Positions 21,101 to 44,475 of a stretch of 64,000 nucleotides of DNA are shown here, one piece after another. Each line of letters opens with the position of its first letter. The stretch's first letter is position 1. Below the pieces are notes generated by a model. That model searched no databases, was not told where the DNA came from, and was given only the letters and a program-made list of their open reading frames with translations. This DNA comes from Patescibacteria group bacterium (GTDB lineage: Bacteria; Patescibacteriota; Patescibacteriia; Magasanikbacterales; GWA2-37-8): the NCBI GenBank assembly GCA_004321885.1, contig SCQK01000007.1, positions 1 through 64,000 of the forward strand. Reading direction: 5' to 3'. The translations under genes and the position numbers were made by a program.

Positions 21101-24100
21101 CGCCGCATTGGCTAAAAGCCGCGGCGCAGGCCGCGTTAAAATCGGCCTGGGCAAAGCCGCCAAAAGTCGCCTGATTGTCCCAGCACCATTTGCTGGCCAG
21201 TTTAGTGCCATTATGCAAACAACTCGCGTTGCATCCCAGCGCTGATTGCGGATTGGCCGGGTCCGGTGCAATGCCCAAATCGCAATCCTCATCATCGCCC
21301 ACGGTTCTGTTGCCGCAGATGGAAACGTTTATGGCGCCCGGCGGCGGGCTGGCCGACGAGCCTTTTTTGGTGTTATTTTTTGACCGACAGTCCAAATTGC
21401 AGGCAAAAGCCGACTGGGGGTTTGCGGCATTAGACGCAATACCCAAATCACAATCCTCGCCCGCTTCCACTTTGCCGTTGCCGCAGGCCGCGAGGAGCAT
21501 GCCGGCGCCCGCGGCCACGCCACTGCCTTTTTTCACGCAATGGCTGGTGCAAAATTGATTCTTGCCTTGGGTGCCGTAAAAATTTATCTGGGCCACCTTG
21601 TCGTCTGATGAGGCCCATGTCCAGCTGGTCTTCCAAGGATTTACTTTTTGGCCGCTCGGGTTGCATTTGTCCGGCGAGGAATACGCCAGCACATTGTAAA
21701 CCTCGCGCGAAGTAATGGTGGGCGCGATGTACTTGGCCGGCGCCACCTCGGCGCGCGCCACTTCGCATTTGGTTTTTTTGGTGCGGAAGCGCCAGGAAAA
21801 TTCTTTGGTATACGGCTTGCTGAAATTAGTAGCGTCATTGGCCTGGGAAAGGGTACGCAGAGACCACAACAAACGTTGGTCGCTCAAATTGGTGGCGCTG
21901 GCTGAAACAGTCGCCAAGTACAGGGTCTCGGGCTTTAATTCTACCGAGGTGTCTTTGGAATTAGCAACTTTCAAAATCGTGTAACCCCCGGCGCTGTCCA
22001 AAACCACATCCCCAGACGCGCCCACGGACTTCAGCTGTTTGCAATTTTCATCCAGACACTCGTAAAGTTTTACCGAGCCCTTTTCATTGGCGCCGGTCAG
22101 GTTGCGCATGGACATAGAGGTGCTCCAGCGCACAGCCACCTCGGCGTTGGTGCAGGCCTCCAAACAGTTGGGCCAAAAATCAATCGGCTTGGGGTCGCTT
22201 AAATCAATTTTCAAAATGCCATTGCCGCTAAAACTACCCTCGGCGTCCATGGCTCTGGCTATCAGGCTGACTGCGTCAAAAGGATTGGCCAGCCCAACCC
22301 CCACTGTGTTGGTCAAAGCGGAAAAACGCGCCTTTTTTTGCGTGGCGGCTCCGTCAAAAATTTCCGAGTAAGACGTGTCGCCCGAATTCCAGCTCCAATT
22401 AAAAGCGCTGGCGTCCATTAGCACGCATTTTTGCGTGGACAGGCCCGTGGCCGACCAATACTGGGAATTGCCCTTGTTTGTAATGGGCTTTTCCAAAACA
22501 CTGGTGTAATAATCATAGGGGGTGACCAGCACTTTTTTCATTTTGCAATCCGCGTCATCGGTTTTGAAGAAAAAACAATAGGCGCTGTTGGCAATGCCCG
22601 CGCCATCGCAGGGCTTGTCTTTTTGCAAATTTAAAACCGCCGGGCCCACGCCCGCTGAAATGTTGGCAGACAAAACAGCCTGATACCAGGTATTGTTTTT
22701 CCACAAACCGTTGTTGTAGCCGGACGTTGGTTTTAAGTTTACAAAAGAAGTGGCGCCATTGGCAGTCTGCGCGCCGATGGCCGGGGTAAACACGGCCGTG
22801 GCGTTGGTTTGGTCCGCGAGCGGCACGCCAACCGGATTAACGCACAAACCATTTTCCAGGCCCGCGCATTCGCGAAGCACGAAATCAGCCGGGCTAATGG
22901 GATTCATCAGCTTGGAAAACTCCACCGACACCAGGGCCTGACGGCAAACATTATGGTGGTCTCCGGACGCGCCCCCATCCCACGAAATATCAGGCGAAGG
23001 CGAGGGCAAAACAATGCCCGCGTCATCGCATCTTTCTATGACGCGGGGAAACTTGGGAATGTCGCGCGTGCTTATGCGCCAAACATAGCCCGAGGTTAGG
23101 GTCTCGCCGGCGCACAGCTCGGTGGCCGGCTTGCACAGGCCCTTGTCCGCGCCCGTGGCACAGCACTTGTCCGCGCCCGCGCATTTATTTCCGCTTTTCA
23201 CGCAGTCGTAGACATCAAAATTAGCTGGATTGCTCATTTTTTGCTCGGCCGAACGGTAGACCACCACGGGCCCGGTAATGGCGCCCGGGGGCGGCGAGGC
23301 AAAACTGGCGATTTGCGCCTTGCCAGAATTGGCCACGCTCACGCCCGCGGCCGGCACGCGCCCCACCACACTTGTGGACGAAGCCTGGGTTTTCCAAAAA
23401 TACACGCTCGGACTGGCGCCAAAATACTCGCCGGCGATTTTCATCTGCGAAGAAGCCGCGAACGGCACTGGCCCGGCCGTAGGGTCTATATTGCAAATGC
23501 CCGGCGCCGGACGGCCGTCGCCAAGCGTAAAGCCGTAAAAGGGCGCGCCCGCCTCCCCGCTGGCCGATACCACCTGCACCGCGTACTGGCCGTTTAATAG
23601 TTCGCTCGCGTTCGGAAACTTCACGATGATTCTGTCTGTTTTCCAAATATTATTTTTGCATTCTGGCGGAAAATCAAAGTCGCCCAGATTGGCCAGGCCC
23701 GAGCCGTTTAGCTTAAACCAAATTTTTCCCACTTTGTCGCCGAAATTTTTGCCGGTGATGGTAATATATTCCCCTCGCCCACCGTTTTCCGGACTAATGC
23801 CGGAAATCACCGGCGCGCCCTCGCCCATGCCGTCTATTACCGCAAAGCCCACCGAATTGCTTTCCGCTCCTTTGGTGTCTGTTAATTTTACCGGCGCCCA
23901 GCCCTGGCCCAGGCCAGGCACTTTGGCTTTGGCCGCGGTGTCGTTCCAGGCCAAAGGGTCTGCATACGCCGCCAGTTCGCCAAAAGTGATTTTGCTCGCG
24001 GCGCCGTAAGTACTAAAACTCTTGCCCGCGAGCGTTACCTCTTGCCCCACCACTCCGCTCGGCGGAATGGGCGGGCACAAACTGGGGCGTGTTTGCGTTG

Positions 24101-30462: not shown

Positions 30463-30582
30463 GGTGATTTTTCCATTTTACATTATTATTACTAAAATTT
30501 CAAGGTTTGCTTTTGGGAAAGACGCGAAAGCCACGACTTCGCGTCTGTTTCCTCCTTCCCCCTTGTTATGCACGGCCGTTGT

Positions 30583-31131
30583 TCACGGCCACGGCCCGAA
30601 GCGGATTCTCGTGGGAACCGACTCCATGGGCACGGCCGCTCGCTGTGGCGGTTTCATGGGCTCTGGCTGAAAAATGCCAACCGCCTGCACTAACAAGCCG
30701 CGCACCACGTCTTCGTCCCCTATCCGGCAGACGAAGAATAGCTTCTGCCCCCACCTCTTGGTGGTGGCATAGCCGACCGTGTACCCGCGCCCTCCGGCGA
30801 GCGGAAAGGTGCGACATTGAGAGATAAGATGAATACACTTGACCAGCGCGAGGGCGCAGGCCATTTGTATCACATCACTCTCGTCTGGTGGACACAGATA
30901 GTCCACCACCTGCCCGCCGACGGTCTGGATTTCCGCTACCCTCTCCATTCTATTTCTCCTTTCTACCCTGTGGGATGGCCGGTAGGCGGCGTGATTTTGT
31001 TGCCGCGAGTTCTCCGATGGGCTTTCCGGAAAATCTCCGGCGACGAAGCCGCTTCTCTGACTCTGATAAAGCAGGCGGTTTCCCCCAACAGCTCCACCGG
31101 CGCCCTGTCTCTCTTGTCGCAGACGAACCAC
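30583..31131 (-). CDS. Hypothetical protein in the GC-rich islet (possibly the 3' part of a frameshifted gene)
   Basis: 182-aa ORF rich in G and C at codon third positions. It overlaps the ORF at 30963..31406 in another frame. No recognisable motifs. Confidence 0.35.
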   Translation of the reverse strand: MVRLRQERQGAGGAVGGNRLLYQSQRSGFVAGDFPESPSENSRQQNHAAYRPSHRVERRNRMERVAEIQTVGGQVVDYLCPPDESDVIQMACALALVKCIHLISQCRTFPLAGGRGYTVGYATTKRWGQKLFFVCRIGDEDVVRGLLVQAVGIFQPEPMKPPQRAAVPMESVPTRIRFGPWP

Positions 31132-31406
31132 ACCCCGGCGCCCTCTGCGGTGTTGGCGAAGAAATAATGCCAGCCATCTCCGTGAGGAATTGTGAGAACC
31201 CTTTCAAAGCCGGGCGGCCACCAGCGCCAGCGCCTTGTCCACTGTGCCGGCAACACATCAACCACAAACGACGTGAGAATCTCTCTCACCAGATCGTGAT
31301 TGTGCGCTTCACAATCAAACTCCAGGGCCTTGCCATTTATCCACAACAGGCTCATTTTTTTCTCCTGCCCCCTCAAAGAGGCGGTGAAGTGTCTTAATAA
31401 GGTCAA
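30963..31406 (-). CDS. Hypothetical protein in the GC-rich islet
   Basis: 147-aa ORF (MSLLWINGKALEFDCEAHNHDLVREILTSF...). Its composition is unlike that of the flanking genes. Confidence 0.35.
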   Translation of the reverse strand: MTLLRHFTASLRGQEKKMSLLWINGKALEFDCEAHNHDLVREILTSFVVDVLPAQWTRRWRWWPPGFERVLTIPHGDGWHYFFANTAEGAGVWFVCDKRDRAPVELLGETACFIRVREAASSPEIFRKAHRRTRGNKITPPTGHPTG

Positions 31407-31420
31407 TGAACGAACTCACG

Positions 31421-31580: not shown

Positions 31581-32069
31581 TTAAATTTTGGCCAAGTTAT
31601 CCAGTATCTCCACCGCGGCCAGACCGGCTTCGTAGCCTTTATTAAAGTCGTCATCGCCGGCGCGCGCCTTGGCCAGCTCCAAATTCGGGGTGGTAAGCAC
31701 GGCGAAAAGCACCGGCAGATTGAATTTTAACGCCACGTTCACGAGACCCATAGAGCAGGCGCTGGAAATATATTCGTCGTGCTTGGTCTCGCCTTTGATA
31801 ACCGCGCCCAGGCAAATGACAGCGTCGTATTTTTTTACCCGCCCGCCATGCGGGTTGGCCGCGGCTAATTTTTGCGCCGCCAAGGGCAACTCAAAAGACC
31901 CGGGCACTTCCAAAATTTTAATATTCTTATCTGAAACCGCGCACTCTTTCAGCGCGCGCAAACAGCCGGCCAGCAGGCCGCTGGTGATTTCCCCGTTAAA
32001 ATTCGCCTTGGCAATGGCGATTTTGTACTTGGCGCCGTATAGTTTTTTCCTTATTTTTTTGTTTCGCAT
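31581..32069 (-). CDS. ribH: 6,7-dimethyl-8-ribityllumazine synthase
   Basis: KIAIAKANFNGEITSGLLAGCLRAL and VPGSFELP are typical of RibH. Confidence 0.85.
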   Translation of the reverse strand: MRNKKIRKKLYGAKYKIAIAKANFNGEITSGLLAGCLRALKECAVSDKNIKILEVPGSFELPLAAQKLAAANPHGGRVKKYDAVICLGAVIKGETKHDEYISSACSMGLVNVALKFNLPVLFAVLTTPNLELAKARAGDDDFNKGYEAGLAAVEILDNLAKI

Positions 32070-32632
32070 AATTTTTCTAAATATCTGGCTATCACGTCCA
32101 CCTCAATATTCACCCTATCCCGGACTTTTATATTTTTCAAATTCGTTATCTCGCGCGTGTGGCTAATGAGCGCCACGCGAAACCGCTCGCCCATGTCCTC
32201 GGCAATAGTCAAACTGATGCCGTTTATCGCCACCGTGCCCTTGCGCGCCAAGTAAACGCGCAATTCCGGCGGCGAACTTATCACCAACTCGGCGTACTCG
32301 CCGACTGTTTTAATTTCTTCCACCGCGCCCACGCCGTCCACATGCCCCAGCACAAAATGCCCGTCCAGCCGCTCGCCGACTTTTAGCGACTTTTCCAGAT
32401 TTACGTCATCTCCAACTTTCAGCGCGGAAAAATTGGTCACGCGAAAGGTCTCGGGCATGATTTCTATTTGAAAACTGTCGCCGTCTAACGCGATTACTGT
32501 CGTACACACCCCGTTTACCGCGATGCTGTCGCCGATTTTTATATCCGCCAAAAAATTCTTCACGGTAATCGTAAAGATATGGTTGGAAATTTCTTTTACT
32601 ACGCCGACTGTTTCAATAATGCCGGTAAACAT
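32051..32632 (-). CDS. ribE: Riboflavin synthase alpha subunit
   Basis: MFTGIIETVG N-terminus, with a duplicated lumazine-binding fold. The start is taken at MFTG, since the upstream in-frame extension is the palindromic element. Confidence 0.85.
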   Translation of the reverse strand: MFTGIIETVGVVKEISNHIFTITVKNFLADIKIGDSIAVNGVCTTVIALDGDSFQIEIMPETFRVTNFSALKVGDDVNLEKSLKVGERLDGHFVLGHVDGVGAVEEIKTVGEYAELVISSPPELRVYLARKGTVAINGISLTIAEDMGERFRVALISHTREITNLKNIKVRDRVNIEVDVIARYLEKLCETKK

Positions 32633-32638
32633 ACAATT

Positions 32639-32668
32639 GTCATTCCCCCGACTTAGTCGGGGGAATCC
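32639..32668. repeat. Family A palindromic element gtcattcccccgacttagtcgggggaatcc immediately upstream of ribE
   Basis: A perfect inverted repeat lying between the ATPase gene stop and the ribE start. Confidence 0.7.
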
Positions 32669-32677
32669 ATCAACCAT

Positions 32678-34264
32678 TCAAAACAACGTTCGCTCGGCCC
32701 GCTGTTTGCTAAGCTCGGACAAAAACCGGCCCACAAATTCCTGGGGACTGCGGCCAAGCGCCACGAAATCGTATAGCAGAAGCGCCACCACCATGGCCGC
32801 GTGAAGCTCTTCCCAGCGCTGTTCTCGCGCGCGCGTCCAGGCCGGATGGCTGGTGTTGATATAGGCCGTGTCTTCAAAAATTCGGCCGAGCTGGTCTTTA
32901 TCAGCGCCGGTAAACGGCTCCAGCGCCAGCTTCAGGCCGGGCTTGCTTACCCGCTTTTGCCGCTCGCCATCGGGGTCGGATTTTAGGACTGAATTTTTTT
33001 CCCGCTCGCTATTTTTTTGTGCCGCATCGCCCAAACCCAAACGCAGCGTTTCTTCTTTTCCTTTTTTTTTCGCCTTTGAAGCATCAGCCCCAGCCGCCGC
33101 TTTTACCGTTAAGCGCCTCACACCGATGACGTCTTCCAGCTCCGGAAAATCACCGGCCAGATTTCCCAAAACATCTTCAATGCGCCTGGCTAGGGGTTTC
33201 ATGTTCGCCGGCGCTTTCACCGCGGCCTCGGTCGCGCTGTCTTCACCAAACATTTTAAGGATAGGTAAAATCGCTCCCTGAATCGCTTTACGGAAGCGAT
33301 AGTATTTTTTCAAACTGGCCGCGTCGGTCAAAAAACCGTCCTTGTTGGTGGTAAGCAACGTGGACAAAGCCGGAATTTCCACCAGCCCCACCAACTGATA
33401 GGCTGACTTGGGAGATACGCCCGCCCATTCCCAGCCGGTTTTAATCACTTTGCCGTAGGTGGAAACGGCCAGACCCGAAGCCAGGGAAAGCGGCGCCGGC
33501 TTGCCGCCGGTGATTTTATCCAGCCAGCCCGCCTCGCGGTCTTTGAAGGCGATAAATCCATACCCGATTGGTCTTCTTTGTTTGGGCAGGCGCACTTCAA
33601 ACCATTTGTCATTATGGCGGCCGATGTCATCGGGCAAAACCACGCGCCGGCCGTTCACGAAAAACTCCACGCCTTTTTTGTAAACGTGCCGCAAAATTTT
33701 TTCATTCATCCCATGGTTGAGCAGGGGATAAAAATGTTTGATGATGGCGCGTTCTATGAACCCTTCGCCCAAAATCTTTTCCGTCGGCGAACGCCCGCCG
33801 GCCGGACGAGCAGGTAAAACAATGCTCACGCTGGAGCCGCGCGGGTGCGGAATAGTATCGCTGGAGGGAACAAACTTCCACGGCGCGCGAAACAGACCCG
33901 ACAGCCGCCACTCCGAGGCGCAGCGGCCGCCATGGGGACCGCGCGTTTCCGTCACCACGCTGTCGGCTAAAATCAAAGACAGTTTGGCCCCCACGCCGGC
34001 AAAGCCGATGCCTTCGCCGCGCACTTTGTCCGAAGAAGCGATGTTGTGATATTCGCGAAACTGCGGCCGGCTCATGCCGCGCCCGTTGTCCACGCAGGTA
34101 ACGCGCGCCTGCCCCAGGTCGGTAAAAAAATCCACCCGCGTGGCGCCCGAATCCAGGGCGTTGGCCACTAACTCGGTGATAATCACTTCTTCTATCGGCG
34201 AACTATAGCTGTCGCGGATGTCTTCCAAGAGGTGCTTCAAATTTATCCGTGTTTCATTGGACAT
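32678..34264 (-). CDS. GHKL-superfamily ATPase (HATPase_c_3 / MORC- or Hsp90-like ATP-binding protein)
   Basis: 528 aa. N-box ELVANALDSGAT, G1 box DNGRGM and G2 IGFAGVGAKLS are present. The C-terminal half has no recognisable domain. Confidence 0.6.
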   Translation of the reverse strand: MSNETRINLKHLLEDIRDSYSSPIEEVIITELVANALDSGATRVDFFTDLGQARVTCVDNGRGMSRPQFREYHNIASSDKVRGEGIGFAGVGAKLSLILADSVVTETRGPHGGRCASEWRLSGLFRAPWKFVPSSDTIPHPRGSSVSIVLPARPAGGRSPTEKILGEGFIERAIIKHFYPLLNHGMNEKILRHVYKKGVEFFVNGRRVVLPDDIGRHNDKWFEVRLPKQRRPIGYGFIAFKDREAGWLDKITGGKPAPLSLASGLAVSTYGKVIKTGWEWAGVSPKSAYQLVGLVEIPALSTLLTTNKDGFLTDAASLKKYYRFRKAIQGAILPILKMFGEDSATEAAVKAPANMKPLARRIEDVLGNLAGDFPELEDVIGVRRLTVKAAAGADASKAKKKGKEETLRLGLGDAAQKNSEREKNSVLKSDPDGERQKRVSKPGLKLALEPFTGADKDQLGRIFEDTAYINTSHPAWTRAREQRWEELHAAMVVALLLYDFVALGRSPQEFVGRFLSELSKQRAERTLF

Positions 34265-35116: not shown

Positions 35117-35124
35117 AACACATT

Positions 35125-35151
35125 GTCATTCCGGCCCAAGAGCCGGAATCC
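35125..35151. repeat. Family A element gtcattccggcccaagagccggaatcc (intergenic)
   Basis: Lies between the nnr start and the stop of the PEP-utilizer gene. Confidence 0.65.
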
Positions 35152-35153
35152 AG

Positions 35154-36248
35154 TCAATTTATTTTTCTCACAACTCCCTTCTCCGCGTCCACCTCCACCA
35201 TATCGCCGTCTTTGAAAACCTGCGTGGCGATTTTGGTGCCGATGACGCAGGGAATGCCGAGTTCGCGCGACAGAACCGCCGCGTGCGACAACACGCCTCC
35301 CTCGTCCGTTACTACTGCCGCGCTGTTTTTCACTATTTCCATCAGTTGAGGATTGGTAGAGCTGGCAACCAGAATATAATTATTTATTGCGATTTTTCCG
35401 GTGTTGTTCTCCAAAAGCAGAACCTTGCCTGCGGCTTTCCCGGCGCAGGCCGGATACCCTTTAATCAACTTCGGCGCTTCTTTTATCTTAAAAAATTCAT
35501 CGTCAATTTTTTTTACCATCGCCGGATTTGAAATAATAAGTTCGCGCTCGCCCCGCTCTACAAATAAATAAAAAAATCCGTTGCGCCGTTTATTCAGCTC
35601 ATTCAGTTCGCCCGCGCTCAATCGCTCTTTATCTAAAAATTTTTTCATTTCCGCGACAGAAAGCAAAGCCAGCAAATCGCCGCTAAACTTCTTTCGCCGC
35701 CCCACATTATTCGCCGCGTCCGCCAGCATTTTTTCTATTTCAGGATAAAATTGAGCCATTTTTTCGCGGTTACGACTAATAGTTTTTATATATTTCGGCA
35801 GGGCCTTTTCGTTATTCCCGACAAAACGCCAAAAACAATTGATAATGCCGATAGCGGCCATAAAATTCGGATACTGCGCGGTCAACGCTTTAAGAAATTT
35901 TTCCGGCCGTGAAGAAATATATCGCCTGTGCTTCAAAATTTCGTTTTGGCATCTGGCAAAAATTCTTTCTGCGGGTTCAAAAGCCATTTTAGTTAATTTG
36001 TCAAAATTCTTTTGCGCAAATTTTTTGGTGCGGTTGATTACTTTCTGCTCATCATACATGGAATGCCAAAAATTCACGCGCCCCTTGCCCGCCACGGCGC
36101 CATACGATATTTTTATCTGCTTTCTTAACAGCTTCGTGTAACCAAGCCCAACGGCGCTTAATGAAAACAACGACATGCATCTTTGAGTGGCAGGCCTCAA
36201 TTTATGCTTTTGAATCAATCTTTTTAGTTGGCCAAAATCAACGGCCAT
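35154..36248 (-). CDS. PEP-utilizing enzyme mobile (swivel phosphohistidine) domain protein, paralog 1
   Basis: 364 aa. The C-terminus VTDEGGVLSHAAVLSRELGIPCVIGTKIATQVFKDGDMVEVDAEKGVVRKIN matches the PEP-utilizers family. Confidence 0.7.
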   Translation of the reverse strand: MAVDFGQLKRLIQKHKLRPATQRCMSLFSLSAVGLGYTKLLRKQIKISYGAVAGKGRVNFWHSMYDEQKVINRTKKFAQKNFDKLTKMAFEPAERIFARCQNEILKHRRYISSRPEKFLKALTAQYPNFMAAIGIINCFWRFVGNNEKALPKYIKTISRNREKMAQFYPEIEKMLADAANNVGRRKKFSGDLLALLSVAEMKKFLDKERLSAGELNELNKRRNGFFYLFVERGERELIISNPAMVKKIDDEFFKIKEAPKLIKGYPACAGKAAGKVLLLENNTGKIAINNYILVASSTNPQLMEIVKNSAAVVTDEGGVLSHAAVLSRELGIPCVIGTKIATQVFKDGDMVEVDAEKGVVRKIN

Positions 36249-36278
36249 ATGCCGATAATATACACCACCCTGCTAAAT

Positions 36279-36307
36279 TTGACAAAAACGCGAATTTGTG
36301 CTATAAA
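36279..36307 (+). promoter_or_regulatory. Sigma70-like promoter TTGACA-17-TATAAA with an extended -10
   Basis: ttgacaaaaacgcgaatttgtgctataaaa is nearly identical to the promoter at 52513. A 240-nt ORF-less leader follows, sharing tgttttgt...aatgaaa with the 52548 locus. Confidence 0.55.
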
Positions 36308-36447
36308 AAACTGCTTGTTTTGTGTGAATGAAACACCACGGGCTTACGCCCGGGGAACTGCGTTAGAATATTAGCCAATCTTGGCTAACTTTCCCTAAAC
36401 AAGAGCACTTTGAAAAGGGAAAAGTACTCTTGAAAAGCATTTTGATT

Positions 36448-36474
36448 GTCATTCTTGCCCGTGAGCAGGAATCC
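36448..36474. repeat. Family A element gtcattcttgcccgtgagcaggaatcc
   Basis: Located in the leader upstream of the GC-rich phosphatase gene. Confidence 0.6.
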
Positions 36475-36552
36475 AGTCAGGATGCTTTTCAGGAGGATAG
36501 GAACCCCGATTAGTCCGGCAAGGAGCCGGACACCACTGACAAGGAGAGAGAA

Positions 36553-37149
36553 GTGAAGACAATCATCGTTGTGAGGCATCCCGAGAAGGACGGAGACAAG
36601 ATCACGGCACTCGGTGCCATGCAGGCCTTCGCGACCGCGCTGGCGCTCGGCGCCATGTTCCCGAAGATTACCCAGATCCTGTGGTCGGGCGCGAACCGCG
36701 CCTGGCAGGCAGCGATGGTGACCTTGGCCGCGCTCGGTGGCGATGGCCGCTGGCTCAAAGAGAGCCGCGGCTTCCACTTCGAACCGACATTCACGAACGT
36801 CTACGGCAAGGACGCCCCCGCGGCGTTCAAGGCCGAGACGGCCGCCATCAAGGAGCGACTCGGCAAGTCCGCCCTCACCGTCGCCGACGCATTGGAACAC
36901 AGCGAGTACGCGCGCCAGGGCCGAGTGGTTATGACGGACACACTCTTCAAGCTCGCCAGCACGATGAAGGACGACGACGTGGTGCTGGCCGTCAGTCACT
37001 CGCCGTGGTTGGAGCTCGCCGCACTCGACCCGGCGACCATGCCCTACGGCATCGGCGAGGCCGAAGCTGTGGCCTACCACATAGAGGACAGCAAAATCCT
37101 GACCATAGAGCGGGTGTTGTCCTCGCTGGCCGGCAAGGCCAACTGCTGA
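36553..37149 (+). CDS. Histidine phosphatase superfamily (phosphoglycerate mutase / SixA-like) protein; GC-rich, probably foreign
   Basis: GTG start preceded by the RBS aaggagag. IIVVRHPEKDGD and LAVSHSPWLE motifs are present. Its GC content and GC3 are clearly above those of neighbouring genes (judged by eye). Confidence 0.6.
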   Translation: MKTIIVVRHPEKDGDKITALGAMQAFATALALGAMFPKITQILWSGANRAWQAAMVTLAALGGDGRWLKESRGFHFEPTFTNVYGKDAPAAFKAETAAIKERLGKSALTVADALEHSEYARQGRVVMTDTLFKLASTMKDDDVVLAVSHSPWLELAALDPATMPYGIGEAEAVAYHIEDSKILTIERVLSSLAGKANC

Positions 37150-37268
37150 CAGCGGACGTCTCCCTCCCTCGCCGGCCCCGCCCGGCGGCCCATTTCCCAA
37201 AACTCAAAGTGCAACGCGCCCACGGTTTCCCGCGGGCGCTTTGTTTTTTTAAAAAATTATCTATCAAT

Positions 37269-37721
37269 TCAGCTTAATCCCAAAGCCGGCTTCATTTTGC
37301 TTACGTCCACTTCCAATTTTTCAACACGCTCTTCCAGTTTCGTGGTCGCGTGGACGGTTAAAGTAAGCTCTTGGTCTTTCTTTTCCATCAGACCAACAAT
37401 CTTATCCAGTGAATTTGATAACTTGCCAATGTCATTCTTGGTCGCCATTGTCTCTTCCATACGTTCCAACCGTTCCGTATGGTCAACAACCGTGCGCGCG
37501 ATTAAATCAAGCCGCTCCTCATGATCCGCGAGTTTTTTATCAATCTTATCAAACCTCTCATCGTGCTCTTTGAATTTGGCATCATGCTCAATGAATTTTT
37601 GGTTAATTTTTCCAAAATTTCCATCATGCTCAACGAGTTTCTGATTCACTTTTTCAAGATTGCCTCCGAGCTCGTTGAGTTTTTGCATTATAGCGTCGGT
37701 CATATGGTCGTATTGTATCAT
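37269..37721 (-). CDS. Coiled-coil protein with roughly 11-residue repeats (KxNQKxxEHDxxF)
   Basis: 150 aa: LEKVNQKLVEHDGNFGKINQKFIEHDAKFKEHDERFDKIDKKLADHEERLDL. Confidence 0.5.
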   Translation of the reverse strand: MIQYDHMTDAIMQKLNELGGNLEKVNQKLVEHDGNFGKINQKFIEHDAKFKEHDERFDKIDKKLADHEERLDLIARTVVDHTERLERMEETMATKNDIGKLSNSLDKIVGLMEKKDQELTLTVHATTKLEERVEKLEVDVSKMKPALGLS

Positions 37722-37782
37722 TCACCAAAAACCGTGTCAAACTTGTCATGCTGAACTTGTTTCAGCATCTCCGTTCGCGGTT

Positions 37783-39258
37783 TCATATTTTTCTCACAAT
37801 CCCCTTCTCCGCGTCCACTTCCACCATATCCCCGTCTTTGAAAATCTTTGTAGCTATTTTTGTAGCAATAACGCACGGCTTTTTCATCTCGCGAGCCACA
37901 ATGGCCGCGTGACAAATGAGACCGCCTTCGTCCGTCACAATGGCGGCCGCCCTTTTCATCGCCGGCACCATATCCGGATCAGTCATGGAACTGACCAAAA
38001 TTTCTCCTTCCAACAAATTCTGCGCTTGGTATTCCATTTTTATCACTCTCACCCTGCCTTTTACTTTTCCGCGATAAGCCACAGCTCCTTTCACTTCCTT
38101 AACTTCTTCATGTCCAAGTCCCAGAAACTTATCAACAAATTTTCTCGCCTTATCTCCGCTGCCATCAACTATTTTTCCCCTACTAAGAAGGCAATAATAA
38201 TAGCCGAACCGTTCATTGATTACTTTTTTCAACCGCGGTCTACTTTTTTCATTCATCAGATAATCTCCCATCTGACGATAATTTAACTGCCGCAAAGATA
38301 TAACATCCATTCCAACTCGGTCGGCAATCGCCTGAAACAAAGGATAGGACCAAAGAATCGCGCGGCTCATTGCCGCCTTTCTGCCGTCGTTTGATATATT
38401 GATTCCTCGTAAATATTCTAAGATATTAAGTTCGGCGCGCGAAAATTTGTATTTTTTTAACAATTTTTGTCTTGCCCGCGAAATTTCACCCGGACCATTC
38501 AAAAGATTTTTCAATTCAACGGAAAAATTATTGTCTGAAAATGTTTTTCTAACCCCGGCGATAGCCAGGTTCAAATTTAAGGGTTGAACATGGTGGCTGA
38601 CCGGAACCCAATCAAAATTTCTAACGTAATTTTCAATTTGGCAATACAAAGCGGGGTGAAAACGTCCCAACTGTTCTATAACTTCTTCGTCGGTTTTTTT
38701 GAACAAAGATTCTAATTCATGTTGACGAACTTTCTTGGCAATATTTAATAAAGCAATCCGCTCGCGATTGTATTCTCCGAGCTCGGTGGAAGAAATCAAA
38801 ATTGACATGTCATCGGCCGGTACCGCGCACTTTAGTATGGTCGGCAATAGTGCACTAATCGCGCCATCCATAATTTTCGGAAAAGGATATAGCCCGAATT
38901 TTGCCGACAATAGCGCGACAAATTTATTAAGCAACCGGCTCAAAACATTTTTGTCAGCTTGGAAGCAATCCCGGAAACGAACTGAATGACAAAACTTAAG
39001 GAGTAGGGAGTCGGCACCTTTAATTACCGCGAGAATACGTGGAATTGAAGTCTTTTTTAACAGCCGCGCAATCCAATTCTTCGCGGCCAAATCATTTTTT
39101 GGATGATAATAAATTGATGTCAACTGCTTGTCCGTAATTGACACCCATCCGTCTAACTTTAAACCAACTCTCAATCCTTGCTCGCGAAAGCCCTTAACAA
39201 AAATGCTCATGTAAAAAGGCATTCTAATTCCGGCGGACATGAATTTTTTCCACTGCAT
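37783..39258 (-). CDS. PEP-utilizing enzyme mobile-domain protein, paralog 2
   Basis: 491 aa. The C-terminus VTDEGGLICHAAIVAREMKKPCVIATKIATKIFKDGDMVEVDAEKGIVRKI is nearly identical to the C-terminus of the 35154 paralog, including at the DNA level. Confidence 0.7.
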   Translation of the reverse strand: MQWKKFMSAGIRMPFYMSIFVKGFREQGLRVGLKLDGWVSITDKQLTSIYYHPKNDLAAKNWIARLLKKTSIPRILAVIKGADSLLLKFCHSVRFRDCFQADKNVLSRLLNKFVALLSAKFGLYPFPKIMDGAISALLPTILKCAVPADDMSILISSTELGEYNRERIALLNIAKKVRQHELESLFKKTDEEVIEQLGRFHPALYCQIENYVRNFDWVPVSHHVQPLNLNLAIAGVRKTFSDNNFSVELKNLLNGPGEISRARQKLLKKYKFSRAELNILEYLRGINISNDGRKAAMSRAILWSYPLFQAIADRVGMDVISLRQLNYRQMGDYLMNEKSRPRLKKVINERFGYYYCLLSRGKIVDGSGDKARKFVDKFLGLGHEEVKEVKGAVAYRGKVKGRVRVIKMEYQAQNLLEGEILVSSMTDPDMVPAMKRAAAIVTDEGGLICHAAIVAREMKKPCVIATKIATKIFKDGDMVEVDAEKGIVRKI

Positions 39259-39263
39259 ATTTT

Positions 39264-39932
39264 TTAGATTATTTCCACTGGCACGGTTGCCAGATTCTGA
39301 AATTTCTCGCCTTCTTCTTTGGCACCTATTACTTTATCATTGTAAACAAAATCTCCATAATGAATTGGCATCGCCATTTTTGGATTTATCATGGCCACGG
39401 CTTCGGCCGCTTCCTCGGCCGTCATCGTAAAAACGCCCGAAATCGGCAGCATGGCCACGTCAATGTTTTTTAGATTGGCCATCTCCGGTATTTTATCAGT
39501 ATCCCCGGCCACGTAAATTCGTTTTCCATCCAATTCAACAACGTAACCGACTTTATTTTCCTGGGGCGGATGAAATGGCACACCCGGAGAGCGAAATTTA
39601 TCAATATTATACGCCGGCACAGTCTCTATTTTAATTTTACCCAAGGATAAAAAATCCCCGGGCTTGACGTATTTTATTTCTTTTACCTCGAGACCGACTA
39701 ACTTCTCTTCACATTGCGCGGAAGCGATAACAGTGGTTTCTTCGTCGCAAATCTTTTTAATTTCATCAGGACTGCAGTGATCTTGATGTTCATGGGTGAT
39801 AAAAATATAATCCGCTTTTTCTATTTCCGACTCGGGCAAATTGAACGGGTCAAAAAATATGGTCACTCCTCCCCCTTTAATTTTTACTGCCGCGTGAAAT
39901 ACTTTTTTGATTTCCAATCCTTGATAGTCCAT
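39264..39932 (-). CDS. MBL-fold metallo-hydrolase
   Basis: HxHxDH motif FITHEHQDHC. Confidence 0.8.
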   Translation of the reverse strand: MDYQGLEIKKVFHAAVKIKGGGVTIFFDPFNLPESEIEKADYIFITHEHQDHCSPDEIKKICDEETTVIASAQCEEKLVGLEVKEIKYVKPGDFLSLGKIKIETVPAYNIDKFRSPGVPFHPPQENKVGYVVELDGKRIYVAGDTDKIPEMANLKNIDVAMLPISGVFTMTAEEAAEAVAMINPKMAMPIHYGDFVYNDKVIGAKEEGEKFQNLATVPVEII

Positions 39933-39960
39933 ATGGGGGATGATTAAATTAATTTAGTAT

Positions 39961-40200
39961 TTTCCTCACCACTCCCTTCTCCGCATCCACCCCAGCGCCA
40001 AAACTCGCTTCGCTCATTTGGTGCGGGGCATGCTTCCACCATTACTGTTCTATTCTCTTCACTATACCCTTGTTCGCATCAACTTCAACGAGGTCCCCGT
40101 CCTTAAAAACCTGCGTGGCGATTTTGGTGCCAATGACGCAGGGCTTTTTCATTTCGCGCGCCACAATTGCGGTACGCAAATAGTATACCTTCGTAGCAGT
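39961..40200 (-). pseudogene. Degenerate fragment of a third PEP-utilizer swivel-domain copy
   Basis: 40060-40200 is homologous at the DNA level to 35165-35290 and 37795-37920 (cctgcgtggcgattttggtgccaatgacgcaggg). There is no intact ORF on the minus strand; the ORF track shows only an antisense shadow at 40018..40269. Confidence 0.5.
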
Positions 40201-40381: not shown

Positions 40382-40408
40382 TTACCGCGATGGATTCCTG
40401 CTTGCGCA
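40382..40408. repeat. Family A element (reverse orientation) ggattcctgcttgcgcaggaatgacag, just 3' of the 16S rRNA gene
   Basis: It translates as WIPACAGMT in the shadow ORF, the classic signature of this element class. Confidence 0.65.
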
Positions 40409-40518
40409 GGAATGACAGCGTGGACAATTTGCCAATCGACAGAGTATCACAGTGTTTCCACTGAGTATCTCCAGAAAGGAGGTGATCCATCCACAGCTTC
40501 CGCTACGGATGCCTTGTT

Positions 40519-41287
40519 CATGTTTCTCCCTATGTCGCCATAAGGCACGGACTATATCATCACCCGTTTTGAGAGAATTTTTTGCTTAGCCGGATGCCAT
40601 GAGCCGATAACTCGGATAAAATCTTGGAGCGAATTCGCTCTCACGAATATGCGCCAATAATCCGGGTCAACTCGCTTGCTGGGATTGTGAACTTTCCCGC
40701 AAACGATGCTCATTTTTTTCAACATCTGTTTAAGCTTGCATATCTTGGCTTTATCCTTTTGCACCAATTGTATATACAGCCGCGCTGTAATGTGGTGCGG
40801 AACGCCGCCTTCGGCGTCAAAGAATCCTCGAATATACGCTTTTTGTTCTTCGCGACTTTTTAGCCGCAATGGATCAAAACGGAAATCCAGAAATGACGCT
40901 AATGTTTCAAGAACATGGACATCTCTGTCTTTTCCTTCGCGATACATCCAAGACGAATAGCCAATCTTTTTTAGAAGTCGCTTTAGCGTTTTTAGCCAAC
41001 CGGTTCCCTTTTGTGAAAAACGGAATCTGCGGTTACTGCTAAATGTGCCGTCGTGCAATGCTCCTAAAAGATATGCTTTTATTTCTCCCCTTAACGGGGT
41101 TCGGCGTGTAGTCTCTGAGGGGTCAATCCCGACTAAGTCGGGACGACTTCCCTGCTGATTGACTGCACCGAAAACTTTTTCACTCATACTGCTATAGTGT
41201 AGCACAAGTAGTTTCGGATACACAGTGTTTCCAGCAAACAGCCGAATTTGTTTTTAGCGATTACTCGCTAAGAGTCGCAATTTGTTT
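40519..41287 (-). mobile_element. 16S rRNA intron 1 (about 769 nt, near E. coli position 1506) carrying a LAGLIDADG homing endonuclease ORF
   Basis: The exon sequence ccttgtt / acgactt is split by this insertion, which contains the ORF at 40552..41223. Confidence 0.7.
40552..41223 (-). CDS. LAGLIDADG homing endonuclease (intron-encoded)
   Basis: 223 aa with the motif IRGFFDAEGGV; a second motif lies near LLGALHDGTF. Confidence 0.75.
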   Translation of the reverse strand: MYPKLLVLHYSSMSEKVFGAVNQQGSRPDLVGIDPSETTRRTPLRGEIKAYLLGALHDGTFSSNRRFRFSQKGTGWLKTLKRLLKKIGYSSWMYREGKDRDVHVLETLASFLDFRFDPLRLKSREEQKAYIRGFFDAEGGVPHHITARLYIQLVQKDKAKICKLKQMLKKMSIVCGKVHNPSKRVDPDYWRIFVRANSLQDFIRVIGSWHPAKQKILSKRVMI

Positions 41288-41699
41288 ACGACTTTACCCT
41301 AGTCACTGACCCTGCCTTAATTCCCCGAAGGAAACTTTGGGCATTGCCAGCTCCCGTGGTATGACGGGCGGTGAGTACAAGACCCGAGAACGTATTCAAC
41401 GCGCCGTGGCTGATGCGCGTTTACTAGCGATTCCGACTTCATGAAGGCGAGTTGCAGCCTTCAATCTGAACTGGGGCCGGTTTTGATGGGATTGGCTCCG
41501 CCTCGCGGCTTAGCGACCCATTGTACCGGCCATTGTAGCATGTGTGTAGCCCTGGACGTAAGAGCCATGCTGATTTGACGTCGTCCACCCCTTCCTCCCG
41601 GCCCGCTGTTCGCTTGCTTTCGCAAACGCCCAAAGGGCCGGGCGGTCTCGCGTGAATATTTAACACGCGACGTGGGTTGCGCTCGTTTCCCAACTTAAT

Positions 41700-41992
41700 G
41701 GTACACCTCCGGATTATTATCTTCACGCAGACTATTCCTTCACCCTTTGCCGACTAAGTCGGCATGAGGGGCTGGCGTATTAGCGGAACTATAAATTCAA
41801 TCACATCCATGAATTCCGCTCTTGGCAAAATGCCTTAGTCGTTACAGGGTCAACCCACGATTTTATTTAAAATCGGGGCGACTTCCCTCGGAGTTCCCAA
41901 ATTCATATGGTATATTTTACCATTTTTACATGAATTTGATAATGAGGTTCTCCGATATGAGCCAGATTTCTCATATCTCTTTTCAGAGATAG
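41700..41992 (-). other. ORF-less insertion of about 290 nt in the 16S rRNA (near E. coli position 1090): a degenerate intron or expansion segment
   Basis: The conserved sequence cccaacttaa...catctcacgacacgagctgac is interrupted. The insert has no ORF. It contains ccgactaagtcgg and the ggcgacttccctcgg motif shared with the other insertions. Confidence 0.55.
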
Positions 41993-42118
41993 GCCGCGAG
42001 ATGTTCACGGCACGAGCTGACGGCAACCATGCAGCACCTATCTAGCACCCTCGAAGGCGGCGGCCGTTTCCGGCAGCTTGCAGCTAGTAGTTGAGCCCAG
42101 GTAAGGTTCCTCGTTTGT

Positions 42119-42163
<45 letters not shown>

Positions 42164-42299
42164 TATTCCTTTGAGTTTTAACCTTGCGGCCGTACTCCCC
42201 AGGCGGCGCACTTAACGCGTTAGCTTTTTTGAACGGCACTGACAGGGTCGATACTGCCAATACCTAGTGCGCATAGTTTAGGGCGTGGACTACCAGGGT

Positions 42300-43330
42300 C
42301 ATTTCACTTTACATTTCTGTAAAGATTGGACTATATCATTTTCTGTAAGCTTTCCACTTGCTTTTCTTGAGATTGACATACTCTCGTATTTTTTCCAAAG
42401 AAAAGCCCGTGTTTTTCGCTATTTCAGAAATCCAGCGTTCTTGAAGTTGAACATCGTTATACATCAGAATCACTTTGGGCAAAACTTCTTCAACCTTCGT
42501 ATAAGGCAGAATAATGCGAAGAAGTTTTTTTAGTTCCTCGGTGGAACGCAACCAAATTCTGAAGTATTTTTCTTTTTTTCCATTAACCTTTGTAATGGAT
42601 GCCACTCTGACCTTGATTTTCCAGACTGTTTGAAGATATTTGGCTAAAACTTGCACGGCTTTTTCATCAAAGCCATCGGTGCAGATGACGCCTTTTCTAC
42701 CATTTGAAATGATAGAACCGTCGTCAAACCACCAGATTGCCAGTGATAATGGGCTCATGAAATTTAACCACTTTCTTCGTATTTCCAATCTGTTGTTTTT
42801 ACAGGTCAGATTGTGCATTTCCGTCAATGCTTCCAGGGCCTTGCTTTGATAACGAAGTTTTGCTTGTTTGCTAAACCCGTTATCTTGTTCTTGAAGCCAG
42901 ACCGACTTATCCGAGGATATCTCGGACAGCTGCCTGACCTTCCAGTCAAAGTAGGCTTTCTGAATGACGGAGTGCCTGAAAGAAAATCTGGCGTTTTTGT
43001 ATGGCCGATGGATTTTTAACGACCCGTCGCCCAACAAAGAGCCGAGGATTATTTCTTTCACGCCATTTGACAAAGGCACATTAGAATAATTATTCATAAT
43101 TTATGAATGATAATTAAATGCGCCAACTATCTTTCATCAACTTCATAGTCTCTACGGGGTCGAACCGCATTTGGCGGACGACTTCCCTCGGGATTGTCCA
43201 AACTGATGGTAGTATTTTTTTGTTTGGAGTTTCCCCGATATAGCTGAATGCTCATCTCAACATTGCTGTTGAGAGGGACACCGTTTATGCCGACTTGTTC
43301 CGCCTTAGGCGAACAAGCGACAAAGGATCT
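42300..43330 (-). mobile_element. 16S rRNA intron 3 (about 1.03 kb, near E. coli position 790) carrying a LAGLIDADG homing endonuclease ORF
   Basis: The exon sequence ggactaccagggt / atctaatcctgtt is split. The insertion contains the ORF at 42336..43097 and about 230 nt of flanking intron core. Confidence 0.7.
42336..43097 (-). CDS. LAGLIDADG homing endonuclease (intron-encoded, two-motif type)
   Basis: 253 aa. Motif 1 is ILGSLLGDGSL and motif 2 is IWWFDDGS. Confidence 0.8.
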   Translation of the reverse strand: MNNYSNVPLSNGVKEIILGSLLGDGSLKIHRPYKNARFSFRHSVIQKAYFDWKVRQLSEISSDKSVWLQEQDNGFSKQAKLRYQSKALEALTEMHNLTCKNNRLEIRRKWLNFMSPLSLAIWWFDDGSIISNGRKGVICTDGFDEKAVQVLAKYLQTVWKIKVRVASITKVNGKKEKYFRIWLRSTEELKKLLRIILPYTKVEEVLPKVILMYNDVQLQERWISEIAKNTGFSLEKIREYVNLKKSKWKAYRK

Positions 43331-44475
43331 ATCTAATCCTGTTCGCTCCCCACGCTTTCGTCCATGAGTGTCAGAAACGTACCAGCAAGCTGCCTTCGCC
43401 TTTGGTGTTCTTGCGGATATCAACGCTTATTACGACTACACCCGCAATTCCGCTTGCCTCTTCCGTCCTCAAGTTTGGTAGTTTCAAAGGCAATCTTAGA
43501 GTTAAGCTCTAAGTTTTGACCCCTGACCCGCCAAACCACCTGCGGACGCTTTACGCCCAATAAATCCGGATAACGCTTGAGGTCTCTGTATTACCGCTAC
43601 TGCTGGCACAGAGTTAGTAACCTCTTATTCACGAAGTACCGTCACGAATTCTTCCCTCGTAAAAGCGGTTTACGACCCGAAGGCCTTCATCCCGCACGCG
43701 GCGTCGCTCCATCAGGCTTTCGCCCATTGTGGAATATTCTCGACTGCAGCCTCCCGTAGGAGTCTGGGCAGTGTCTCAGTCCCAGTGAGGCAGGTCACGC
43801 TCTCACGCCTGCTACTGATCATCGCCTTGGTGAGCCATTACCTCACCAACTAGCTAATCAGACATAGGCCCCTCTCCAAGCAGCTTGCGCTTTTAAATGC
43901 GAATGACTTTTGTCCCCGCATTGCCATCGGGTTTTAATTCGCCTTTCGGCGAGCTATCCCCGTCTCGGAGGTAGGTTACCAATGTGTTACTCACCCGTTT
44001 GCCGCTCGTAATTCCCTTGCGGGAACACGTCGCTCGACTTGCATGCCTTAAACACGCCGCCAGCGTTCATCCTGAGCTAGGATCAAACTCTTAAAAAGAG
44101 TTGATCTCGTTCTACCCGACTTCGCCAAAGCTACATCGGGTAAGATGAACGAGTTAATATATACGGATTTATTTATTTATACTCGGTCGCCTCTTCGGCA
44201 GCCGAGTTTCGAATAGACTTTATTTTGTGGTTTTTGTCACGTTTGTGTTGTCAATGAACTTCTTACCCTGTTCGCAGAGTAAGAAAAAAGAGTAATCAAA
44301 TCTTGATTCCTCTTTTCTCTTACCAGTATCCACCGAAGGCGGACTTAGAAGACAAGCTGAATTGTCGGAGGTGCTTTTGCTGAAGGATTTATATTAAATC
44401 TTAGCTTTCGCATTTTATCATATACCAAAATTTTGTCAAGGGGGTGGGTGTGGGCAGAATGTGGATAAAAAAACA

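Follow-up and report, generated by a model that had tools for sequence, protein, structure and literature searches.

Two neighbouring genes of a Patescibacteria group bacterium (Magasanikbacterales), here termed A and B, probably encode acceptor (H-type) subunits of a split small-molecule dikinase, which would be charged by a separately encoded ATP-grasp protein; we place the probability of this reading at roughly 60%. Both genes lie in a stretch of 64,000 nt (hereafter, the window; contig SCQK01000007.1 of the metagenome-assembled genome GCA_004321885.1, positions 1 to 64,000, forward strand). Gene A (35154..36248, minus strand) encodes a short acceptor module of 364 aa and 41 kDa (NCBI EPN28_01660) and gene B (37783..39258, minus strand) a long acceptor module of 491 aa and 56 kDa. 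They are read as acceptor subunits because their domain architecture is exactly that of the H type. Further evidence comes from fold homology to rifampin phosphotransferase (RPH), conservation of the phosphohistidine motif, organisation of related genes in arrays and frequent linkage or fusion to ATP-grasp sequences in other genomes.

In A, a helical/beta N-terminal domain (N-domain) of ~260 aa is followed by a phosphohistidine swivel domain (TDEGGVLSH322AA), and in B, an N-domain of ~385 aa resembling the rifampin-binding domain of RPH is followed by a swivel domain (TDEGGLICH450AA). The two open reading frames (ORFs), which the earlier note had reported as ending in swivel domains, are real: the C-terminal regions match PF00391 (PEP-utilizers) with 80.8 bits in A (E 5.7e-23) and 89 bits in B (E 1.5e-25), above the Pfam gathering cut-off of 23.1. 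The swivel His of the T/S-x-x-G-G-x-x-x-H loop is present in both proteins (His322 in A and His450 in B), and the His of TDEGGxxxH is invariant in the aligned sequences of both families (46/46 for B and 42/42 for A). The C-terminal peptide of the swivel is also very conserved (family consensus ...GTKIATKVFKDGDxVEVDAxxGIVRK). Pfam detects neither PPDK_N (PF01326) nor a C-terminal phosphoenolpyruvate (PEP)/pyruvate TIM barrel in A or B, both of which end in the swivel domain. NCBIfam models for PEP synthase, whose cut-off is 598 bits, score A at 91 and B at 119 bits, and the PRK08296 models (~570–630 aa) are matched by the swivel region only. NCBI lists a protein identical to A (EPN28_01660) and a shortened B (EPN28_01675; 362 aa, starting at Met130), both from a contig of 214,539 nt assigned to a Patescibacteria group bacterium. 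The 491-aa ORF of B from 39258 is supported as the better start, as homologs align from residue 1 and the N-terminal strands are modelled confidently.

AlphaFold2 models of B and A, built from alignments of 46 and 42 sequences, have pLDDT values of 90.0 and 94.3, respectively. With the profile of the B family, ~400 positions align to residues 456–866 of RPH-Lm (E 5e-30), which comprise most of the rifampin-binding domain and the swivel; with that of the A family, the alignment covers RPH residues 701–866 (E 5e-26). In Foldseek searches, six RPH entries come out on top (E 2.5e-14 to 1.6e-11, TM 0.43–0.58); identity to RPH is 14–21%, and RPH is the sole structural homolog found. The N-terminal 260–390 aa of A and B are thus predicted, from profiles and models, to fold into an ordered domain, related by homology to the one that binds rifampin in RPH, rather than to be a disordered leader, and both proteins have the combination of this fold and a swivel that is seen in RPH. 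B has a near-invariant Arg293-Lys294 pair, whose helix is placed on the RPH catalytic helix in the hidden Markov model (HMM) alignment; Lys294 is aligned to RPH Lys670, and Arg293 is three residues past the Arg666 position. In RPH, Arg666, Glu667 and Lys670 are catalytic residues on the substrate-domain helix (PMC4844700). These results alter the description given in the earlier note, in which A and B were unusual stand-alone swivel proteins and possibly remnants of PEP synthase or an RPH-like enzyme. The proteins carry RPH-like N-domains and are not fragments of PEP synthase (PpsA); the suspected link to RPH is borne out, but the proteins are not remnants, as full-length relatives are present in many genomes.

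Split dikinases of this kind are already known. A study of 2025 defined two-component small-molecule dikinases, in which HpeI is a stand-alone ATP-grasp protein homologous to the ATP-grasp of RPH, and HpeH consists of RPH-like substrate-binding and swivel domains, HpeHI being a two-component RPH homolog; CreHI and PpsAB share this build, the conserved His is essential, and HpeH, CreH and PpsA are ~45% identical among themselves (PMC12167813). As far as the published description allows comparison, HpeHI of Rhodococcus, CreHI of Corynebacterium and the phenylphosphate synthase PpsAB of Thauera and Aromatoleum have the split architecture proposed here. The H subunit (HpeH/CreH/PpsA type) contains an RPH-like domain and a swivel without ATP-grasp, as do A and B, and the two-component dikinases and the related family in candidate phyla radiation (CPR) bacteria are alike in having a separate ATP-grasp protein of ~315–340 aa and a conserved T/S-x-x-G-G-x-x-x-H loop. 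RPH-Lm itself (PDB 5FBS, 5FBT, 5FBU and 5HV1-3) carries the ATP-grasp in the same chain, unlike A and B. The swivel domains find their closest match in PEP synthases from archaea and bacteria (E 4e-51 to 8a8e; ~60% swivel identity), but PEP synthase and pyruvate phosphate dikinase (PPDK) have both PPDK_N and the PEP/pyruvate TIM barrel, neither of which is present in A or B, and their second substrate domain differs in fold.

The ATP-grasp partner is found in relatives. A search with PPDK_N from P0110, a full-length relative in CPR bacteria, gave ~8000 matches; the best 120 of these contain PF01326 only, ~100 of them are ~310–345 aa long, and those with a named source are all from Patescibacteria, with 60–69% identity to the query. 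This stand-alone ATP-grasp of the lineage also matches PPDK_N of the PpsA type. The genomic context of A- and B-like modules was analysed with our own HMMs in one genome per GTDB species, and 244 modules were counted at 68 loci; by record title, these are mostly from CPR and DPANN genomes, and a few bins bear other, unverified labels. Within 10 kb of the modules, PPDK_N is encoded as a stand-alone gene in 15 of the 68 loci and is fused to modules in 10, i.e., ATP-grasp is present in 25/68; among loci of at least 15 kb, linkage is seen in 15/37. In one locus (L004), a stand-alone PPDK_N gene is directly upstream of the module array, and in two others (L006 and L007) the order is array, flavokinase, RibE, RibH and PPDK_N. 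In P0108 and P0110 (Nomurabacteria, ~836 aa) and in locus L048, fusion to ATP-grasp yields complete RPH-like enzymes consisting of ATP-grasp, middle domain and swivel; in P0108 and P0110 the middle domain and swivel are homologous to B, but the ATP-grasp is in the same chain. When P0110 is searched against the window by tblastn, its middle region matches B with E 2e-6 and its swivel gives E 6e-36.

The families of A and B are large and are concentrated in two groups of organisms. Searches gave more than 3100 matches for B and ~1700 for A, and almost every match with a named source comes from Patescibacteria or DPANN archaea; the members are annotated merely as 'PEP-utilizing enzyme' or 'phosphohistidine swiveling domain-containing protein'. 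Many of the loci are arrays: at least three modules are present in 33 of the 68 loci, at least five in 22 and at least eight in 11, with a maximum of 12 and a density of up to 12 modules per 20 kb. For example, PF00391 is found in 14 of 18 consecutive genes on a 428-kb contig of Paceibacterota (L002), in nine genes within 22 kb of the complete Moraniibacteriota genome CP064975.1 (L003), and in six genes within 12 kb of another locus (L001), whose parent contig has eight in ~20 kb. The array in the window is small, with two intact genes and two 3' relics described below. N-domain lengths are trimodal (~240, 330 and 375 aa), and clustering at E<1e-30 divides the 244 N-domains into 137 groups, mostly with one member per locus; they are conserved as orthologs across CPR and DPANN. 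Inside arrays, N-domains are ~23% identical, and swivels are 49–58% identical.

Modules also occur joined in single chains. Matches of 700–850 aa without PPDK_N are tandem fusions of two modules with two swivels each, B-A fusions are found (P0026 and L008), and ORFs of three to eight modules exist. In an archaeal metagenome-assembled genome (L016, 1-8811), eight swivel domains lie in one open ORF of 2937 aa, a polyprotein of repeated N-domain-plus-swivel modules, and a Paceibacterota protein of 1383 aa (L004, 2574-6725) has three. The commonest non-module neighbour of the arrays is a helix-turn-helix protein of ~250 aa, present in 10 loci (e.g., L025, 848-1609, minus strand), whose N-terminus is reminiscent of regulators of the TrmB type. 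In the systems known so far, one H subunit is paired with one I subunit in operons for aromatic catabolism, and the hosts are free-living bacteria. In the CPR/DPANN family, by contrast, a locus can hold as many as 12 strongly diverged H-type genes, modules are also joined into polyproteins, and the ATP-grasp is encoded by at most one gene, often an unlinked one. We found no description of this CPR/DPANN branch of split RPH-like dikinases in the literature, the only mention being an in silico resistome survey that counts rph-like genes in CPR genomes (PMC8651080). With its short H-type subunits, extensive arrays, polyproteins and, in most cases, a single ATP-grasp, it would represent an apparently undescribed branch of a known kind of enzyme.

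In the proposed mechanism, a separate ATP-grasp protein of ~315 aa containing PPDK_N only would bind ATP, and the beta-phosphate of ATP would be transferred to the invariant swivel His (His322 in A and His450 in B). The phosphorylated swivel would then swing back to its own RPH-like substrate-binding N-domain, and the phosphate would be handed to a small molecule bound there. The N-domains of paralogs are almost unrelated in sequence, but the swivels show strong conservation; it is therefore probable that a single ATP-grasp charger acts on many modules that differ in their acceptors. One-to-many charging fits this contrast as well as the conservation of a single ATP-grasp. A wider proposal is that CPR and DPANN organisms possess a system in which a single conserved ATP-grasp charges up to a dozen or more diversified RPH-like modules, in arrays or in polyproteins of up to ~8 modules, each for a different small molecule, with a recurrent histidine-phosphatase partner, the window being a decaying instance. 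We offer this only tentatively, at somewhat less than even odds.

CPR and DPANN genomes are ~1 Mb in size and contain few recognisable metabolic enzymes, and some of them devote 15–20 kb to a dozen diverged copies of these modules (L002, L009 and L019). If the modules are substrate-specific halves of split dikinases, they would be among the larger unexplained enzyme repertoires of CPR/DPANN and would bear on the uptake of compounds by symbionts from their hosts or on defence against hosts. Such a system would be a compact toolkit by which genome-reduced episymbionts trap, activate or neutralise host-derived metabolites. By itself, the window is a modest finding, with two intact members, two relics and no partner gene.

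A histidine-phosphatase-superfamily gene (36553..37149, plus strand; 198 aa) is located between A and B on the opposite strand. The protein itself has no Pfam or NCBIfam match, and its assignment comes from its homologs, which were collected from the full database and then scanned with Pfam. The gene is real and conserved: the search gave 101 representative homologs, of which 60 have E<=1e-10. Half of the aligned family members (21 of 42) match PF00300 (His_Phos_1), the family profile matches phosphoglycerate mutase and SixA structures (best E 1.9e-6), and R8, H9, R49 and H149 are near-invariant. His_Phos genes recur in module arrays, as in L002 and, on the opposite strand, in L003; an array-associated His_Phos family of ~300 aa is present in seven loci, in addition to short forms. 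BLASTP and small local HMMs do not tie the 36553..37149 gene to these array-associated genes (E 0.07 to 5). Its protein may play an accessory part, as a phosphatase or mutase of the module products or as a phosphohistidine phosphatase comparable to SixA. In the split-dikinase mechanism, it may dephosphorylate or isomerise the products, or reset the phospho-His as SixA does.

Several observations weigh against A and B being subunits of a split dikinase. As the earlier note had pointed out, the window contains no ATP-grasp or PEP-binding-barrel partner: tblastn with CPR PPDK_N gave a best E of 1.4 over the 64 kb, a PPDK_N HMM run over all six frames gave nothing above 2.3 bits, and tblastn with the C-terminal domain of PpsA gave E 9.5. 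A gap of ~950 nt between tRNA-Ile(GAT) and tRNA-Val(GAC) (30463-31420), which has the size of a PPDK_N gene, has no trace of a PPDK_N gene or pseudogene. The separate and normally adjacent ATP-grasp subunit of two-component dikinases is thus absent from the window, although it is found in relatives. In 43 of the 68 related loci no ATP-grasp is encoded inside 10 kb, and in L087 the stand-alone ATP-grasp gene adjoins no module and sits among housekeeping genes, so that linkage is frequent but not obligatory. In addition, the positions of RPH Arg666-Glu667 are not conserved, B having Asn290-Asp291 there in the HMM alignment; ~150 aa of an RPH helical domain, present in B as an extra insert relative to A, are missing from A; and A and B, at 41 and 56 kDa, are far smaller than HpeH (71 kDa). 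If the split-dikinase reading is correct, this genome would be expected to encode its ATP-grasp partner elsewhere.

The absence of a partner gene from the window is the main reason for considering that A and B might be phosphotransferases that act independently of ATP-grasp, passing phosphate from a phospho-donor to the His and then to an acceptor, by which an episymbiont could reuse phosphorylated compounds of its host. There is biochemical precedent, as HpeH alone transfers phosphate from 4-phosphoacetophenone to acetovanillone (PMC12167813), and both the 43 loci with ATP-grasp-free surroundings and the recurrence of a histidine-phosphatase/mutase-family gene in arrays are in line with such a reaction. 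However, linked or fused ATP-grasp in 25/68 loci is far above the expectation for unrelated genes, and the joint conservation of the swivel and of a stand-alone ATP-grasp fits a shared docking partner. We regard ATP-independent transphosphorylation as unlikely.

Since RPH is the only structural homolog and rph-like genes have been listed for CPR in the resistome survey, the modules might instead be kinases for antibiotic or toxin resistance, i.e., RPH analogues that inactivate rifamycin-like or other compounds of hosts or competitors. The NCBIfam model for rifamycin phosphotransferase (NF041857) scores 63.6 bits for B and 50.2 bits for A against an equivalog cut-off of 999, with coverage mainly of the swivel, and the low identity to RPH noted above also speaks against this function. 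A dozen very different N-domains per genome, orthologous across CPR and DPANN, would better fit diverse housekeeping acceptors. PADLOC defence models are not matched by A, B or their neighbours, except for generic coiled-coil matches. A resistance function is accordingly rated as quite improbable, and automated labels such as 'rifampin resistance' or 'PEP synthase' call for caution in genes of this kind.

It is less probable still that the proteins are non-catalytic regulators or decoys, whose swivels would modulate PEP synthase, PPDK or some other enzyme by docking to it, in a manner comparable to the extra swivel of Geobacillus pyruvate kinase, with the N-domains serving as sensors. Against this, the phospho-accepting His and the TDEGG loop are invariant, the N-domain retains the RPH-type fold with a conserved Arg-Lys pair on the catalytic helix, and fusion with ATP-grasp rebuilds complete RPH-like enzymes (P0108, P0110 and L048).

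The relationship between A and B bears on whether the genes were recently duplicated. By BLASTP, A and B are 41% identical over the last 177 aa, and by profile-profile comparison (hhalign) the whole proteins align with a probability of 100% (E 2.5e-67); in global alignment, the N-domains are 23% and the swivels 52% identical. The homology is thus longer than the ~50 aa stated in the earlier note, which had also overstated the DNA similarity in calling it nearly identical: three to four stretches within 5 kb reach 77–91%, but the identity amounts to 77% across 120 nt and 73% across 173 nt, and 91% is attained in the last 34 nt alone. In a codon test over the last 42 codons, in which identical codons at identical residues were compared with the expectation from local codon usage, 19 of 31 codons are identical between A and B against 13.2 expected (P ~0.03), and 15 of 32 between B and the larger relic (relic 1) against 13.6 expected. 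The excess is marginal, so that the DNA similarity mostly reflects a very conserved peptide and codon bias. Support from the codon test for recent duplication or gene conversion, and for the recombination between copies that was once suggested for these repeats, is accordingly no more than marginal.

Relatives in other genomes lead to the same view. Those of B are 38–53% identical with 97–100% coverage, and those of A are 33–41% identical, the best at ~41% across the full length. B is hence closer to its foreign relatives (up to 53%) than to A (41%, partial), and the foreign relatives of A, also at ~41%, match over the full length, unlike B. Judged from these divergences, A and B are old, diverged paralogs belonging to ancient subfamilies rather than products of a recent local expansion. 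The existence of full-length relatives also disposes of the idea that the genes are misassembled PpsA fragments. Both ORFs are intact and predicted to fold confidently, the same proteins are found at NCBI on the 214,539-nt contig, and PPDK_N and TIM-barrel sequences are absent nearby. That A and B are young copies, or collapsed or misassembled PpsA fragments homogenised by recombination, is contradicted by the sequence divergence and is highly improbable.

Two relics accompany the intact genes. Relic 1 (40042..40176, minus strand, read 40176->40042) consists of the last 44 codons and the stop of a third swivel gene (RTAIVAREMKKPCVIGTKIATQVFKDGDLVEVDANKGIVKRIEQ, then stop); it belongs to direct repeat family D1, with 77% identity to B over 120 nt (tblastn E 1.6e-15). 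As its similarity begins at AIVAREM, past the position of the catalytic His, this His is absent together with everything upstream, and relic 1 is a pseudogene fragment. Relic 2 (39949..39993, minus strand, read 39993->39949), just upstream of the MBL-fold gene described below, comprises the last 14 codons and the stop of a fourth swivel gene (GVDAEKGVVRKILN, then stop) and belongs to repeat family D3, in which 34 nt match the 3' end of A at 91% identity. The third, broken copy that had been placed at about 39961-40200 thus exists as the 44-codon relic 1, and the 14-codon fourth relic is additional. The two relics suggest that a formerly longer array is eroding here, not expanding.

Other genes surround the array. 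An MBL-fold hydrolase gene (39264..39932, minus strand; PF13483, E 7e-27; the NCBIfam match to metal-dependent hydrolase is below cut-off) ends 5 nt before the start of B and is therefore probably co-transcribed with it. A gene between B and the histidine-phosphatase gene (37269-37721, minus strand) encodes a coiled-coil protein of 150 aa and contains a tandem duplication of 42 nt (37573-37656); a strong promoter-like site, TTGACA-17-TGnTACAAT, is located just upstream of it (37740-37712). Neither the MBL-fold gene nor the coiled-coil gene is among the recurrent accessory clusters of other arrays, and these neighbours are for this reason not counted as components. An intergenic repeat flanks the swivel genes in three copies, one of them inverted (35122-35167, 36445-36490 and 40401-40422); it holds a perfect hairpin, ATTCCGGC-CCAAGA-GCCGGAAT, and has a REP-like or terminator-like look.

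Genes for RibH (lumazine synthase) and RibE (riboflavin synthase) lie at 31581-32677 (minus strand). In several Patescibacteria (L003, L006 and L007), riboflavin genes, elsewhere together with flavokinase, adjoin module arrays, and in L006 and L007 they stand between the array and the stand-alone ATP-grasp gene; this synteny is shared by the window, but PPDK_N is not in it. The recurrence of riboflavin genes beside arrays may reflect either a functional link or mere conservation of gene order. A gene at 32678-34264 (minus strand), located between the riboflavin genes and an NAD(P)HX dehydratase gene, encodes a protein of 528 aa that begins with a GHKL/HATPase_c_3 (sacsin/MutL-like) ATPase domain; the rest of the protein has no domain assignment, and PADLOC gives no match. 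The gap at 30463-31420 contains only overlapping, spurious-looking ORFs and has no Rfam match at E<=0.1; it could be a divergent structured RNA. Farther away, a giant ORF of 3541 aa occupies 15171-25796 (minus strand).

Beyond the relics, the 16S rRNA gene (40473-44098, minus strand) is interrupted twice, and no 23S gene follows it. Interrupted 16S rRNA genes are typical of CPR bacteria. The Rfam small-subunit rRNA match, 2861 nt against a 1533-nt model, encloses a LAGLIDADG_2 ORF (42336-43097), and near the 3' end of the gene a group I intron (RF00028, 40528-41297) carries a LAGLIDADG_3 ORF (40552-41223). The anti-Shine-Dalgarno end GGATCACCTCCTTTCT is located past this intron, at 40488->40473, suggesting that the end given by Rfam, 41238, is probably wrong.

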